Of a DNA stretch of 64,000 bases, positions 1,404 to 63,455 are shown in pieces (the stretch's first letter is position 1; each line of letters begins with the position of its first letter). Location of the stretch: IMG/VR virus record IMGVR_UViG_3300032269_001670, positions 21,708 to 85,707 of that record; one strand, written 5' to 3'. Source of the DNA: a virus. Its lineage: Duplodnaviria > Caudoviricetes. The notes below the pieces were generated by a model that saw nothing but the letters and a program-made list of their open reading frames with translations, had not been told where the DNA came from and ran no database searches. Position numbers and translations under genes: made by a program.

Positions 1404-1433
1404 TTGACAGACAAATATCAGGCCTGCTAGGCT
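1404..1433 (+). promoter_or_regulatory. Rightward promoter TTGACA-18-TAGGCT with extended TG
   Basis: Perfect -35; TGcTAGGCT; predicted +1 near 1440 coincides with the start of a 12-bp stem. Confidence 0.65.
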
Positions 1434-1439
1434 CCTCTT

Positions 1440-1602
1440 GGCACCACCGGGGAACACCTATCAACCGGGAAAAGAAGAGTAAGCGAAAGCTTCAGTGAAT
1501 CCTTCTGCTTTCGGAAGTAAGGCGGTTCGCCATAACCCGGTGGTGTCATCTATGCCGGTTGAGGAGGGACTCCTACCCCGCCTCCCGGCACCATAGTAGG
1601 AG
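1440..1602 (+). ncRNA. Structured 5' leader RNA with anti-SD (candidate cis-regulatory RNA)
   Basis: GGCACCACCGGG(1440-51) pairs with CCCGGTGGTGTC(1536-47); internal hairpins; CTCCTAC(1570-76) is complementary to SD GTAGGAG(1596-1602). Confidence 0.6.
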
Positions 1603-1608
1603 GTTAAA

Positions 1609-2217: not shown

Positions 2218-2616
2218 ATGGCTTTAAAGATTGCCGCTTTTCTTGGGCTCTGGTTTGGAGTCACCGCAGCTATCCTGATCAACACCCCTGCCAAAGGAAC
2301 GGATTCCTCTCGGTTTTCTGACCAGTTGGTAGCCCTGCATGAAGAAGTATTTTATTGGCACGAGAGTATGTACATTGGCGGAGCCGGAGCCGAGTGGAAG
2401 CCTGATTGGGACTGGTACATGGACTTGCAGGGGAAGATTGAAAGGTTCCAGGCGGAACTCGACCGTGCCCCCAATAGCTCGTGTGCAAACGAAGCTCGTG
2501 CTATCGTCATCTTGCACTGGCCATGGCTTGCCACAAGTCCTGCTGACATTGCCGGGGTTGAGCTCCGATGGAAGGAATCTATCGACAAACTGCCGTTATT
2601 GTGTGGAGAGTTTTAA
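2218..2616 (+). CDS. Secreted or membrane-anchored hypothetical protein
   Basis: N-terminal hydrophobic signal-like segment; tightly packed in the operon. Confidence 0.75.
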   Translation: MALKIAAFLGLWFGVTAAILINTPAKGTDSSRFSDQLVALHEEVFYWHESMYIGGAGAEWKPDWDWYMDLQGKIERFQAELDRAPNSSCANEARAIVILHWPWLATSPADIAGVELRWKESIDKLPLLCGEF

Positions 2617-2628
2617 GGAGGCACGAGC

Positions 2629-3030
2629 ATGACGAAGAAGAAGGTGATTACCGCCGACGACGTGCGAGAGATGAAGGCCATGCTTGACATGGTGAACTTG
2701 TCGTCTCTTGATAAACCATACGGGGAAGATAACGAAGCAACGCTAGGAGATCTAGTCGAGTCCCCGGGGCCATCCCCAGAGGAGCTTAGTCTCACGTCTG
2801 ATATGGTGCGCCTCATTCACGAGATGCTTGAAAGCCTTCCCGACCGGGATCGAGACATCCTTTGTATGCGCTACGGGATCGGCCTGAATCGCCCAATGAC
2901 GATGGAGGAGGTAGGCCAAAAGTACAACCTGAGCCGTGAGCGCGTCCGCCAGATTGAAAATGCCGCGCTGACAACGCTCCGGCACCCGAGCAGGATGCGA
3001 AAAATGCGTGCATATTCGGTGGCAGGATGA
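2629..3030 (+). CDS. Stand-alone sigma70 region 3.2-4 protein (no regions 1-2)
   Basis: SLDKP...TLGDLVE, LPDRDRDILCMRYG, TMEEVG...SRERVRQIENAAL..LRHPSR match the RpoD C-terminus; SD AAGGAGG. Confidence 0.9.
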   Translation: MTKKKVITADDVREMKAMLDMVNLSSLDKPYGEDNEATLGDLVESPGPSPEELSLTSDMVRLIHEMLESLPDRDRDILCMRYGIGLNRPMTMEEVGQKYNLSRERVRQIENAALTTLRHPSRMRKMRAYSVAG

Positions 3031-3254
3031 AAGCAAATCGACTTGAGGGAGCCCCAACCCCGGATGAAGTACTCGTTGCGATGCGTGAATACATGGACAC
3101 TTGGAACCGAGCTCCGACGTTCCGCGAGATGACCGAGATCCTTAATTGCGGTCGAAGCACTGTACAACGCGCCGTCAATAAGCTTGAACAGGACGGGTGG
3201 ATTATGCGTCGTCCGTACGGCACGCGCAGTTGGAAGATTAAGCGCATCCGATAA
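3027..3254 (+). CDS. LexA-like N-terminal winged-helix DNA-binding domain only
   Basis: APTFREMTEIL...STVQRAVNKLEQDGWI.R.PYGTRSW resembles the LexA DBD; no S24 peptidase domain. Confidence 0.8.
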   Translation: MKANRLEGAPTPDEVLVAMREYMDTWNRAPTFREMTEILNCGRSTVQRAVNKLEQDGWIMRRPYGTRSWKIKRIR

Positions 3255-3279: not shown

Positions 3280-3837
3280 ATGAGGATTCGACTTCGCCCG
3301 GCGTACTCAGATGCCGCCTTAGCCAAGCTTTATCAGGTGCCGCACCAGCACGCCAAGTTCCCGGATCACATCCTTAGGGTAAAGATGACCATTGCGCTGG
3401 CTTCGTATTTTCCCAACGTTAAGACCATTGCCGACCTGTCTGCTGGAGACGCGACGATCATCAACGCTATCCACGCGGAAAAACGGTACATTGGGGACTT
3501 TGCCCCGGCCTATGAATTTGTAGGGCCGATTGAAAAAACCATTCACGAAATCCCTAATGTCGATCTCTTCATTTGCTCAGAGACCGTTGAGCATTTAGAC
3601 AACCCAGACGAGGTCTTGGCAATGATTAGCAAGAAAGCAAAGCACCTGATTCTTTCTACCCCGGTTGGGGAGATGAACGATCAGAACCCAGAGCATTACT
3701 GGGGCTGGGACCACGAGGGCGTGCGCGAGATGCTTTTGGCCTCTGGGTTTGCCCCCAAAGCGTTTGCCAACTTCAGGATAATGGGTATAGGCTACATGTA
3801 TCAAGCCTGGGCGTGTGACTCAAAACAAAGGATTTGA
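3280..3837 (+). CDS. Class I SAM-dependent methyltransferase-like protein
   Basis: IADLSAGDA (motif I-like), DLFICSETVEHL, LILSTP. Confidence 0.75.
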   Translation: MRIRLRPAYSDAALAKLYQVPHQHAKFPDHILRVKMTIALASYFPNVKTIADLSAGDATIINAIHAEKRYIGDFAPAYEFVGPIEKTIHEIPNVDLFICSETVEHLDNPDEVLAMISKKAKHLILSTPVGEMNDQNPEHYWGWDHEGVREMLLASGFAPKAFANFRIMGIGYMYQAWACDSKQRI

Positions 3838-3863
3838 CAGCCTAATACCCCATACCTTAGAAT
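3834..3863 (+). promoter_or_regulatory. Promoter TTGACA-18-TAGAAT
   Basis: Near-consensus hexamers upstream of SD GTAGGAGGT and ATG 3906. Confidence 0.75.
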
Positions 3864-3905: not shown

Positions 3906-4319
3906 ATGAATTGCAAGTATTGCGATCCGGCAACAAGCACGGAGATTAAGGTAACCCTCGGCGAGGGCACGATGGGCGTGTATCCCGCACGAATCCGCAC
4001 CGACTATCGTTGGAACGGCTGGCTCTGTCCGGCATTCGATTTCCAGACCGCCCTGCGCGTTGCGGCGGATACCCACCTGCTTGCAGCCGAGCACAACGAC
4101 AAGGGCGACGCGGTAGAGTTCGCCTCCTATAACGCCAGGGATGATGTGTTTATCATGAGCGGCGGTGGCCGCTCGTTCGAAGATGATCTTGTGGAAATTT
4201 CCGCAACCCCGTGCTGTGGGCGCTATGATATTGGTTCAATGAACTGGACATGGGTCGAAGATATGCCAGAGCTTGGCGACGATCCGCAGTTCACGGCAAC
4301 GCTGCCGCTTGAAGGATAA
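3906..4319 (+). CDS. Hypothetical phage protein
   Basis: Strong SD, promoter-proximal. Confidence 0.8.
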   Translation: MNCKYCDPATSTEIKVTLGEGTMGVYPARIRTDYRWNGWLCPAFDFQTALRVAADTHLLAAEHNDKGDAVEFASYNARDDVFIMSGGGRSFEDDLVEISATPCCGRYDIGSMNWTWVEDMPELGDDPQFTATLPLEG

Positions 4320-9524: not shown

Positions 9525-9533
9525 TGGTATAGT
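9525..9533 (+). promoter_or_regulatory. Extended -10 promoter TGGTATAGT driving the tRNA-like RNA
   Basis: The same 9-mer occurs at 13291; G9539 lies 5 nt downstream. Confidence 0.65.
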
Positions 9534-9538
9534 CTAAC

Positions 9539-11501: not shown

Positions 11502-12298
11502 TGGCAGAAAAAAAATCTCCTAAAGTTTTTCTTGTCACGCCAACACTTGATGGAAAAGTGACTGCGGAATACGCGCTGGCAGCAACGCAGCTGCAGTCTG
11601 TGTTGTATTCTCACGGCATTAACTTTCAGCTGCATCTTAACATTGGAAATTCATTGCTCGCTTCGGCAAGAAACAAACTTGCTGACGATTTTTTGTCCAG
11701 CAATGCAGACTATCTTCTGATGGTTGACTCAGACATTGCATACCGAGCTCAAGATGTAGTTGCAGCGTTGCCACACCTCGACGACGCTATTGTTGCCTTC
11801 CCTTGTTCAAAAAAGTTTACAAACTGGGATCGAGTTGCAAAAACTGTGCGCAACAACCCAGACTTTCCTGCGCAGGCAATTTCGGCAATTATGGGTGATG
11901 CAAATTTTCACTTGGGGGAAAGCGATTACCTTCGACCAAACGAGCACGGTTTAGCAAAGGTAAAGTGGATTGGTACGGGCATCATGATGACGTCGCGCAA
12001 AGCTCTGGAAAAGATTATTGCTGCCGAACCAGAGAATAAAACAATGGCCCACAACAAAGTGATTTATGAATTTTTTAGATACGACATGGAGTGGGAGGAA
12101 AAAGACGGCGTGAAGTACAAGGGGTATTCCGGAGAGGATGTTTCGTTCTGCGTGATGGCCAGAAATGCCGGGGTAGAGGTCTACGCCAAGCTCGATGCGC
12201 TTACAACGCACTCAGGATTCATGACGTATCGATTTGACGCAACAGCAGTGGCTAAAATCAAAAAGATTCCCGATGACATCAAGAGGCTAGGGACGTAA
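11501..12298 (+). CDS. GT-A fold glycosyltransferase-like protein, paralog of 10480..11295
   Basis: VTP...GNSLLASARN; LLMVDSDI; GEDVSFC. Confidence 0.8.
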   Translation: MAEKKSPKVFLVTPTLDGKVTAEYALAATQLQSVLYSHGINFQLHLNIGNSLLASARNKLADDFLSSNADYLLMVDSDIAYRAQDVVAALPHLDDAIVAFPCSKKFTNWDRVAKTVRNNPDFPAQAISAIMGDANFHLGESDYLRPNEHGLAKVKWIGTGIMMTSRKALEKIIAAEPENKTMAHNKVIYEFFRYDMEWEEKDGVKYKGYSGEDVSFCVMARNAGVEVYAKLDALTTHSGFMTYRFDATAVAKIKKIPDDIKRLGT

Positions 12299-12725
12299 GC
12301 CTAGATTCTTTTAACGGGTAGGCATACACCAACCAGTTTGATCTGATCTCTCGCCCCGGAAGATTCTCGTCCTCCACAACCGGCACGTAAGCCAAAACGT
12401 GTTCAAGCTTGGAAAATGACCGCAAAGTGCTGTGGGCGGTCTCTTTCGTGCAAGACACTACTTCATCAGGCTTGGGAATAAATCCAAGCTCAATTAGGCC
12501 ACGAAGCGTGTGAGACGCCGGGTCGCCAAAGTCAAGGACAACCACGTATGGCTCAGGAAGGATGACAGTTGTGAACTCTTCTTCAGCCCGGATGCCCAGG
12601 TTGTGCAGGATAAACGAGACGCGCTGCTTGCTGATACCGAACATGCGACCGATTTCGTTTGCCGTGTAGCCATCGAGAAACAGCTCGCCGATTTCTTGGT
12701 TCCTTTGATGTTTGACATTAGGCAC
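12279..12725 (-). CDS. HTH DNA-binding protein
   Basis: RNQEIGELFLDGYTANEIGRMFGISKQRVSFIL. Confidence 0.75.
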   Translation of the reverse strand: MPNVKHQRNQEIGELFLDGYTANEIGRMFGISKQRVSFILHNLGIRAEEEFTTVILPEPYVVVLDFGDPASHTLRGLIELGFIPKPDEVVSCTKETAHSTLRSFSKLEHVLAYVPVVEDENLPGREIRSNWLVYAYPLKESRLTSLAS

Positions 12726-13290: not shown

Positions 13291-13299
13291 TGGTATAGT
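13291..13299 (+). promoter_or_regulatory. Extended -10 TGGTATAGT, leaderless start at 13306
   Basis: ATG 6 nt downstream; no SD. Confidence 0.6.
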
Positions 13300-13305
13300 C
13301 GTTTT

Positions 13306-13527
13306 ATGGAAATGAATATTCCGCCAAGTCCGCGAGCTGCGGCAATCTGGTACCTTTGGTCTTCGTCCTTTGCGGTCTCCATTGTGTATGCTCCACGCTG
13401 GCCAGATGATGCCGTGCCATATGCGGTGCAGTTCCCAAAGAACTACGATACCGGCGATTTTGTCCGCCTGGACGAACGCGAGGCCCAATGGTTGATTGAC
13501 CAGAAAGTGAAGGTTCAACATGACTAA
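13306..13527 (+). CDS. Hypothetical protein
   Basis: Start re-assigned to ATG 13306; coupled to the GT2 gene. Confidence 0.6.
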   Translation: MEMNIPPSPRAAAIWYLWSSSFAVSIVYAPRWPDDAVPYAVQFPKNYDTGDFVRLDEREAQWLIDQKVKVQHD

Positions 13528-21645: not shown

Positions 21646-21959
21646 GCGACAACAATATTACAGTTACGCAAAGAAATAATACGGTTTTGGTGCAAACAGT
21701 AAGCCAACCCAATTCTGTTTCAGTGCAAACACCTGGCCCCCAGGGGCCGCCTGGAATTGGTACATTTTCAACGTACACGCACAATCAAGCGTATCCAGCC
21801 TCAGTTTGGACTATAACTCACAATTTAAACTGCAGGCCAAGCGTAACAATTGTAGATTCTGCGGGTACTGTAGTTTTTGGAGATGTCGAGTATCTTAGCG
21901 CAAACGAGATTCGCGTGACCTTTGTCGCTGCCTTTGCCGGCAAAGCATACCTAAACTAA
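21642..21959 (+). CDS. Small virion protein (fibre-associated)
   Basis: PGPQGPPG; ITHNLN-RPSVTIVDSAG motif seen at fibre C-termini. Confidence 0.7.
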   Translation: MSDNNITVTQRNNTVLVQTVSQPNSVSVQTPGPQGPPGIGTFSTYTHNQAYPASVWTITHNLNCRPSVTIVDSAGTVVFGDVEYLSANEIRVTFVAAFAGKAYLN

Positions 21960-27972: not shown

Positions 27973-28167
27973 ATGGACCAGCAAATTAGTCCGGAAGCGA
28001 TGTTTATGAAAATTGGCGTTCTATCGATTGAGATTGATATGATGCGAGCAACAATTGTGCAGCTTAAAAACGAACTTGATGAGGCCCATGAGCGCATTAA
28101 GGAATTTGAGAAGAACACTCCAGTGAAGCCGGCAGTGACGGCTTCTTTTAAATCAATCAGCGATTAA
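27973..28167 (+). CDS. Small coiled-coil protein
   Basis: SD GGGGGAG; heptad pattern. Confidence 0.7.
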   Translation: MDQQISPEAMFMKIGVLSIEIDMMRATIVQLKNELDEAHERIKEFEKNTPVKPAVTASFKSISD

Positions 28168-28187
28168 GATAATCTTTCTGTATTAGG

Positions 28188-28220
28188 AAAGTCTGTCGGT
28201 CATAACCGGCAGACTTTTTA
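28188..28220 (+). terminator. Intrinsic terminator
   Basis: AAAGTCTGTCGG-TCATAA-CCGGCAGACTTT followed by T-run. Confidence 0.8.
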
Positions 28221-28297
28221 TTTGTTGAACGTTAAGTTTTCATCACATATATTGTACCTGTCAATTCCACTTGCGCAGAGCATGATGAGGTGCAAAT

Positions 28298-51706: not shown

Positions 51707-51715
51707 TGATATAGT
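51707..51715 (+). promoter_or_regulatory. Extended -10 TGATATAGT with 5' hairpin TCTGGCC/GGCCAGA (51719-51738)
   Basis: Drives the inverted two-gene cassette; SD AAGGAG follows. Confidence 0.6.
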
Positions 51716-51750
51716 CCCTCTGGCCGAAAATGGCCAGAAGGAGTTGTAAC

Positions 51751-59189: not shown

Positions 59190-59284
59190 GAGATCTTGCG
59201 CGCAATCACTGATCTCGTCAATGAGACGATTATCTCATCTGTTTTTGCAGTTTACACAAACTGCTGGGATTTTGAAAGAAATCC
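59190..59284 (-). ncRNA. Four consecutive hairpins in the leader of the head operon
   Basis: GGATTT/AAATCC, GCAGTTT/AAACTGC, ATGAGA/TCTCAT, GAGATC/GATCTC around TTGCGCGCAA. Confidence 0.45.
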
Positions 59285-63438: not shown

Positions 63439-63455
63439 TGTGATACACTCCTGGT

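Follow-up and report, generated by a model that had tools for sequence, protein, structure and literature searches.

Some phages bring whole replacement sigma factors, and phage T4 sets a small late co-activator, gp33, on the beta-flap tip of RNA polymerase where sigma70 region 4 would otherwise be; this co-activator has no DNA-reading role and acts together with gp55 and the gp45 clamp. A mostly phage-encoded group of proteins (T4 AsiA, gp39 of Thermus phage P23-45 and P7 of Xp10, with Scc4 of Chlamydia as a bacterial member) uses the same interface between sigma domain 4 and the flap, inhibiting -10/-35 promoters and sparing extended -10 promoters (PMC7403470). The early, non-essential T4 proteins Srd and Srh are listed as sigma70/sigma38 and sigma32 decoys at the RNA polymerase core (PMC3594737, PMC6070864), and the sigma-like domain of PhyR mimics sigma towards the anti-sigma NepR (PMC4551977). 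Here we analyze a free-standing gene for a 133-residue sigma fragment from an uncultured freshwater phage, whose complete 85,707-bp virus record is IMGVR_UViG_3300032269_001670. The 64,000-nucleotide (nt) stretch covering positions 21,708–85,707 of that record is referred to as the window, and coordinates are those of the window unless stated otherwise. Judged by its sequence, the protein is a member of the sigma-70 family by descent, of which only the final helix of region 3.1, the finger and linker of region 3.2, and region 4 are present. No description of a free-standing region 3.2–4 or region-4-only phage sigma was found in the open-access literature searched.

The gene and the parts of its product lie in the window as follows:

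2629–3030, plus strand: gene for the 133-residue protein of sigma regions 3.1 (last helix), 3.2, and 4; stop codon at 3028–3030
2615–2621, plus strand: Shine-Dalgarno sequence AAGGAGG, 7 nt 5′ of the ATG and overlapping the stop codon of the upstream gene
2629–2700, plus strand: residues 1–24, basic N-terminus and equivalent of the last region 3.1 helix (sigma70 ~483–504)
2701–2775, plus strand: residues 25–49, region 3.2 finger and linker, with the S-x-D-x-P motif and the acidic tip kept
2776–3027, plus strand: residues 50–133, sigma domain 4 with five helices
2935–2979, plus strand: residues 103–117, -35 recognition helix (residue roles from PMC4943231, PMC2988021)

Family and structure searches placed the protein at the C-terminal end of group 1 sigma factors (RpoD/SigA), whose C-terminal half it matches with E values of 1e-19 to 1e-29. 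Pfam returned Sigma70_r4 (E 8e-19, residues 67–119) and, below the cut-off, only the C-terminal part of Sigma70_r3 (model positions 32–76 of 78, residues 7–52); the 133 residues matched neither the region 2 nor the region 1.2 family, and at E<=0.01 the output held r4 and r3 alone, without a helix-turn-helix (HTH) match of the GerE/LuxR type. The best NCBIfam models were RpoD and RpoD_Cterm, in both cases over C-terminal positions only, and the PHROGs matched were "RNA polymerase sigma factor" families, again through their C-terminal parts, together with a generic "transcriptional regulator" family. Among solved structures, too, the closest are primary sigmas matched through their C-termini (E 7e-23 to 1e-19), such as C. 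difficile SigA 263–388 and E. coli RpoD 503–610. Aligned to E. coli RpoD (MG1655), M1 falls on L483 and the equivalent span is sigma70 residues 483–613, with a two-residue insertion in the N-terminal helix; this start lies downstream of the region 3.0 helix, which reads the extended -10 TG and is therefore outside the phage protein. A tail of the RpoD type, LRHPSR, occupies residues 117–122. The AlphaFold2 model (predicted local distance difference test, pLDDT, 79) consists of one N-terminal helix, the finger hairpin, and five helices, and in Foldseek it superposes on the sigma chains of holoenzymes with a template modelling score of ~0.6, the best 50 matches listed being sigma chains without exception. 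The preliminary description, made from the letters of the window alone, had recognized a sigma finger and region 4 with an LRHPSR tail, a good Shine-Dalgarno sequence, and no region 2; this was correct in every particular, and the Pfam picture of r4 and partial r3 without r2 bears it out. What the protein has in common with RpoD/SigA is thus the finger motif, the -35 recognition residues, the core-binding residues, the tail, and the predicted fold. It differs in being a separate phage gene without regions 1.1–3.0, and so without the means for clamp-helix binding, for reading the -10 or extended -10 element, or for melting. A further NCBIfam match, to MzaA of the MZA anti-phage system, was rejected as non-specific (the 57–64 bits of the fragment with the PADLOC model are exceeded by the C-terminus of E. 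coli RpoD, at 97 bits, and by a planctomycete RpoD, at 229 bits).

Sixteen region 4 residues interact with the -35 box and six are needed for core binding (PMC4943231). Eleven of the 16 were counted as identical in the family (R554, R562, E574, E575, G577, R584, E585, R586, R588, and Q589, plus R596, for which most members have Lys); L573M and T583S are conservative changes, and the remaining three changes are D570P, Y571M, and K593A. Within the recognition helix, R103, E104, R105, R107, and Q108 correspond to sigma70 R584, E585, R586, R588, and Q589 and are invariant or nearly so in the family. All six core-binding residues are kept (E555, R562, F563, I565, G577, L598), with Asp standing for E555 and, as in most sigmas, Tyr for F563. 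In the finger, S26, D28, and P30 are the equivalents of sigma70 S506, E508, and P510; the S-x-D-x-P motif and the acidic tip are invariant or nearly so across members that are 40–95% identical, including P0319, the 40%-identical member. Family-wide invariance extends to the N-terminus, where M1, T2, K4, T8, A9, D11, V12, R13, and E14 do not vary. The family-specific changes cluster at A592N, K593A, and K597T, joined by R596T in the clade of the window, so that A112 and T116 stand where sigma70 has K593 and K597. Residues 593–603 form a patch that is the target of transcription activators (PMC2988021), and both K593A and K597T lie within it. The replacement of K593 and K597, along with several Leu-to-Met changes, sets the protein apart from RpoD/SigA. 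As a separate observation, 11 of the 133 residues are Met, and at several positions where cellular sigmas conserve Leu (L540, L573, L607) every member of the family has Met.

Like T4 gp33, this is a small phage protein, and the flap seat proposed for it below is that of gp33; there is no sequence relationship between the two (PHROGs gives only sigma and transcriptional-regulator families), and no gp55-like or region-2-like partner was detected here. AsiA, gp39, P7, and Scc4 are unrelated to sigma and bind sigma domain 4 or the flap, whereas the phage fragment is itself a domain 4 with intact DNA-reading residues; none of the AsiA, gp39, or P7 families appeared in Pfam, PHROGs, or NCBIfam, which gave sigma families and the generic "transcriptional regulator" PHROG. 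Both classes of promoter that these proteins tell apart are found in this phage as well. The decoy idea for T4 Srd and Srh is said to rest on a short and weak similarity to sigma, while the phage fragment is an unambiguous full-length homologue of regions 3.2–4. PhyR is also sigma-derived, but it is a bacterial protein in which sigma-2 and sigma-4 of the extracytoplasmic function (ECF) type are joined to a receiver domain, and RNA polymerase is not among its binding partners. By analogy, the closest functional counterparts would be the flap-occupying gp33 and the sigma-4/flap-disrupting AsiA, gp39, P7, and Scc4, although the fragment is unrelated to all of them.

The gene is real and under strong purifying selection. 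A search of 5.8 billion proteins recovered at least 26 clusters of 116–138 residues with 56–95% identity, all of them full length at 133–138 residues except for one form of 116 residues, and the start is shared across the family at the position of MT(K/R)KK. Pairwise ratios of non-synonymous to synonymous substitution rates (dN/dS) are 0.02–0.2. Compared with its closest relative, the gene shows 74 base differences over 402 positions yet only seven residue differences; 62 of the 74 fall on third codon positions.

The best longer proteins were ordinary full-length sigmas with 39–49% identity and at most 90 bits, compared with 153–265 bits within the family. In a library of 1.84 billion representatives, the family amounts to one cluster and one divergent free-standing member, the P0319 already mentioned, a 138-residue protein with 40% identity (L046 454–870) from a 1.3-kb lake contig, where its gene overlaps small genes on both sides; K593 and R596 are retained in it, unlike in the clade of the window. 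Other short or very high-scoring library matches turned out to be assembly duplications or frameshifted pieces of rpoD. The family was found on uncultured phage contigs only; neither 185,579 species genomes nor the deposited phage genomes contained a member. Apparent truncated forms on "Bacteriophage sp." fecal contigs and in a Rickettsiales metagenome-assembled genome proved to be full-length bacterial genes of the rpoD or rpoH type, and the matches in Synechococcus phage S-B68 and related cyanophages are longer proteins (254 residues in S-B68) or annotated sigmas with 29–31% identity. In the phylogenetic tree all members of the family fall into one clade with a long stem, and this clade does not nest within the RpoD sequences of Planctomycetota, the source of most of the named best matches. 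P0186, which grouped as its sister, is a chromosomal bacterial sigma, and the grouping probably reflects long-branch attraction. With identities of 39–49% and no nesting in the tree, the mostly planctomycete matches do not name the host, as the preliminary description had hoped RpoD taxonomy would, and no tRNAs were found that could point to one. Nor does "host-sigma mimic," the label given there, suit a protein that is at most 49% identical to any full-length sigma, sits on a long separate branch, and has the K593/K597 patch replaced.

The missing region 2 was sought throughout the genome. Sigma70_r2 had no match anywhere in the 85.7 kb at E<=10, although the identical search was positive in 11 of 14 control genomes, and none in the records of five relatives, two of which are at least 90% complete. 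A custom hidden Markov model (HMM) of sigma regions 1.2–3.1, built from 116 full-length sigmas and run on every stop-to-stop frame of three phage genomes, matched only the N-terminus of the fragment itself. Neither an upstream nor a frameshifted 5′ part encoding region 2 was seen by Pfam or by the custom HMM, and no close relative carries a full-length sigma. These sequence searches found no region-2-bearing partner in the genome; a very diverged gp55-like partner could escape them. Two other proteins, one of 173 residues at genome position C1:17550–18071 (minus strand, outside the window) and one of 148 residues at 12282–12725 (minus strand) of the window, are generic HTH proteins rather than sigma pieces; of Sigma70_r4, their N-terminal HTH matches positions 17–42 only. 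Without region 2 there is no binding to the beta-prime clamp helices and no DNA opening, and the protein is therefore not a sigma factor. The phage genes identified include the large terminase subunit, portal, prohead protease, tail fibers, and a tape measure of 3397 residues. An RNA polymerase was not evident from the sizes and annotations of the large open reading frames, and a T7-type search was empty, but its control also gave no match. As neither a phage RNA polymerase nor a full sigma was found, the host RNA polymerase must serve throughout. The phage thus maintains a cleanly cut, strongly selected sigma 3.2–4 module with neither a region 2 partner nor a polymerase of its own.

We tentatively favor, as a possible explanation, a trans-acting sigma region 3.2–4 module that docks on the core of the host RNA polymerase. 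The main reason is that the finger motif and the core-binding residues are conserved although a use for them away from the polymerase is not obvious, which suggests docking where this half of sigma normally sits; a pure DNA binder or a decoy for ligands of sigma-4 would have no reason to keep the finger motif. The isolated domain 4 of E. coli sigma is disordered by itself (PMC4236625), which argues for a scaffold such as the flap, and the invariance of the DNA-reading residues suggests that -35 DNA is still read. The protein would be made early from a host-type promoter, its finger and linker would enter the active-site and RNA-exit channel, and domain 4 would settle on the beta-flap tip, from where the unchanged recognition helix would read TTGAC(A/G) -35 boxes. 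It would then act in trans as a competitor of, or a substitute for, the host sigma's own region 3.2–4. Competition for the flap or for -35 boxes, which the preliminary description had proposed, is plausible because the residues contacting core enzyme and -35 DNA are conserved; it is from these residues that we infer binding to the core and to DNA. Were docking to be true, this would make the protein the first competitor of, or stand-in for, region 4 to derive from sigma itself. It would also offer a natural tool for asking whether sigma halves can work as separate polypeptides, how stably the flap holds region 4, and what the finger does when uncoupled from region 2, and the interface is conserved enough for E. 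coli polymerase to serve as a first surrogate.

Whether the module would block or replace the host's region 4 bears on the promoters of the phage, all of which are predictions from sequence:

1404–1433, plus strand: host-type promoter of the operon containing the sigma-fragment gene, TTGACA (1404–1409), 18-nt spacer, TAGGCT (1428–1433)
3834–3863, plus strand: near-consensus promoter TTGACA, 18-nt spacer, TAGAAT, before the next operon; conserved in the distant relative G002
59193–59221, minus strand: -35-type promoter TTGACG, 17-nt spacer, CAAGAT, 53 nt before the prohead protease/scaffold gene
9525–9534, plus strand: TGGTATAGTC, extended -10 motif lacking a -35 box, upstream of the mini-tmRNA (transfer-messenger RNA) gene
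13291–13300, plus strand: TGGTATAGTC, extended -10 motif lacking a -35 box, heading a glycosyltransferase/epimerase operon
51707–51716, plus strand: TGATATAGTC, extended -10 motif lacking a -35 box, upstream of an exonuclease operon

Nearly all predicted promoters of the phage combine a consensus -35 box with a poor -10 element. Conserved promoters of the TTGAC(A/G) type with a weak -10 precede the early cassettes, the operon at 3834, and the prohead protease/scaffold operon, where TTGACG is conserved in G002 while the flanks diverge; another lies on the minus strand at 28264. The extended -10 class is represented by three exact TGRTATAGTC motifs, all on the plus strand, against ~0.3 expected (an estimate from genome length; the shuffle covered up to one mismatch). 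They are kept at orthologous places in a relative with 65–77% local identity, again with diverging flanks. Of the four TGnTAnnnT promoters first listed as possibly independent of a -35 box, those at 9525, 13291, and 51707 are therefore real, conserved extended -10 elements without a -35 box, whereas the site at 63441 carries a weaker motif. The suggested link between these promoters and the sigma piece is not supported, since co-occurrence fails: G009, a relative that lacks the gene, has the TGRTATAGTC motif too. An AsiA-like global shut-off of -35 use fits poorly as well, because conserved -35-type promoters precede the head protease/scaffold operon and others, and a lasting global blockade of -35 recognition would cut into the phage's own late expression.

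Substitution is accordingly favored over blockade by the consensus -35/weak -10 promoters, including that of the head operon, and becomes somewhat more coherent still when this landscape is combined with the lost regulator patch and the invariant DNA readers; the direction of the effect is what we infer from this combination. With substitution, -35 reading at phage promoters would continue through a module that lacks the K593/K597 patch used by host regulators. One arrangement, which we consider unlikely in this exact form, would be a hybrid holoenzyme whose clamp carries the host sigma's N-terminal half, with the RNA-exit channel and flap taken up by the phage piece. If it existed, it would read the phage TTGAC(A/G) boxes yet be blind to host regulators and anti-sigmas that act through region 4. 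This would amount to a natural "domain swap in trans" of a sigma and to a new route of viral takeover of RNA polymerase.

Several points weigh against docking on the polymerase. Being tethered to the enzyme, the host's region 4 should win against a free copy, except where the phage protein is the stronger binder or is made in very large amounts, and K593 and R596, which are listed as DNA contacts too (PMC4943231), are changed in the clade of the window. The gene is also accessory. Relatives were gathered through a conserved neighbor (3906–4319) and presence was scored within 2.5–3.5 kb upstream; five of the ten informative relatives have the sigma piece and five lack it. One of those lacking it is G009, an 82.5-kb contig that is 94% complete and retains the same promoter motifs, so the gene is not required for the basic transcription program. 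Moreover, relatives differ in what they carry at a single position flanked by two small homologous zinc-ribbon genes: some have the sigma piece in this slot, others a winged-helix gene that is a homologue of the one at 3027–3254 of the window. A slot that takes a winged-helix gene fits a plain DNA-binding regulator at least as well.

Such a regulator would occlude TTGAC(A/G) boxes off the polymerase and repress -35-dependent early phage and host promoters, as a Cro-like shut-off; we regard it as unlikely, even though it is the alternative that survives best. The invariant -35 recognition residues would be expected of it, early promoters with a perfect -35 box and a weak -10 would be its best targets, and it would be made from an early promoter open to its own feedback. 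Yet free sigma domain 4 binds DNA only weakly as a monomer. The conserved finger motif and the core-binding residues are left unexplained, a -35-type promoter stands before the late head operon, two DNA contacts (K593 and R596) are changed, and the disorder of the isolated domain (PMC4236625) would have to be overcome.

A decoy for proteins that bind region 4 (anti-sigmas of the Rsd/AsiA kind from the host or a rival phage, or host activators), freeing or protecting the host sigma, seems to us distinctly unlikely on the residue pattern. It would suit an accessory early gene within a plastic region, and it has parallels in T4 Srd and Srh, listed as sigma decoys (PMC3594737), and in the mimicry of sigma by PhyR towards NepR (PMC4551977). 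But the surface most used by regulators, residues 593–597, is precisely what has changed (PMC2988021), identity to any full-length sigma does not exceed 49%, and neither the invariant DNA-reading residues nor the finger would be needed.

Improbable, too, is an elongation factor that would occupy the flap tip as a rival of NusA and suppress pausing and termination at hairpins, so that the many early terminators would be read through. The determinants of flap binding are kept, and the flap-binding phage protein gp39 also antiterminates (PMC7403470). The invariant -35-reading residues, however, would be superfluous for such a factor. Nascent RNA, moreover, displaces sigma regions 3.2–4 from the exit channel and the flap, which counts against it.

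Very improbable is that the fragment is half of a two-piece sigma in which an unrecognized region-2-like phage protein would give core binding and -10 melting. A two-piece arrangement does exist in T4 gp55 plus gp33, but here region 2 is absent by Pfam at E<=10 and by the custom HMM (three genomes), the gene is missing from the 94%-complete G009 with the same promoter motifs, and the neighboring genes vary. A functionless, decaying remnant of a full-length phage sigma gene could account for the truncation relative to every cellular sigma, but it is contradicted by the selection data (dN/dS 0.02–0.2; at least 26 clusters keep the start codon, the ribosome-binding site, and the length) and can be set aside.

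The sigma-fragment gene is the fifth gene of the plus-strand operon behind TTGACA-N18-TAGGCT, and the TTGACA of this promoter is invariant in four relatives (L018, L005, L011, L023) while the flanks vary. The other features of the operon and its surroundings are:

1434–1608, plus strand: structured 5′ leader of ~175 nt preceding the first gene of the operon, from alignment and consensus fold
3027–3254, plus strand: 75-residue winged-helix gene, translationally coupled to the sigma-fragment gene (ATGA), a neighbor only in the clade of the window
Slot loci: L005 5798–6647; L054/L056 2185–2879; L053 2721–3433; window 2629–3254

Across five relatives the leader is more conserved than the adjacent coding DNA. 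In its outer helix, CUCUUG is base-paired to the ribosome-binding site in front of the first gene, whose ATG is at 1609, and the fold is accompanied by compensatory changes at four pairs and includes one hairpin of variable length. No Rfam family matches it; the leader may be a translational riboregulator. Directly before the sigma-fragment gene lies a gene for a membrane-type protein of no family (2218–2616), which is replaced in more distant relatives by an unrelated zinc-ribbon gene. Gene order is kept among relatives for two small upstream genes (70 and 59 residues) and for the downstream run, and the immediate neighbors vary. A conserved, coupled pair of sigma fragment and winged-helix gene was considered, but the pairing is confined to the closest clade; elsewhere among the relatives a zinc-ribbon gene takes that place, or the winged-helix gene occurs with no sigma piece. 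The clade of the window has both the sigma piece and the winged-helix gene and no zinc-ribbon genes; the shared slot is a clean example of alternative cassettes at one position.

Two further observations concern the promoters. At 13291–13312 (plus strand), an ATG lies 6 nt past the TATAGT hexamer, with the same spacing in G002, which makes a leaderless mRNA probable for the glycosyltransferase/epimerase operon. The conserved minus-strand promoter at 28264, TTGAC(A/G)-N17-GAAAAC, stands within the tail-fiber region and is adjoined by a conserved bidirectional terminator hairpin (28150–28264), GTCTGTCGG...CCGGCAGAC, with T/A-run flanks.

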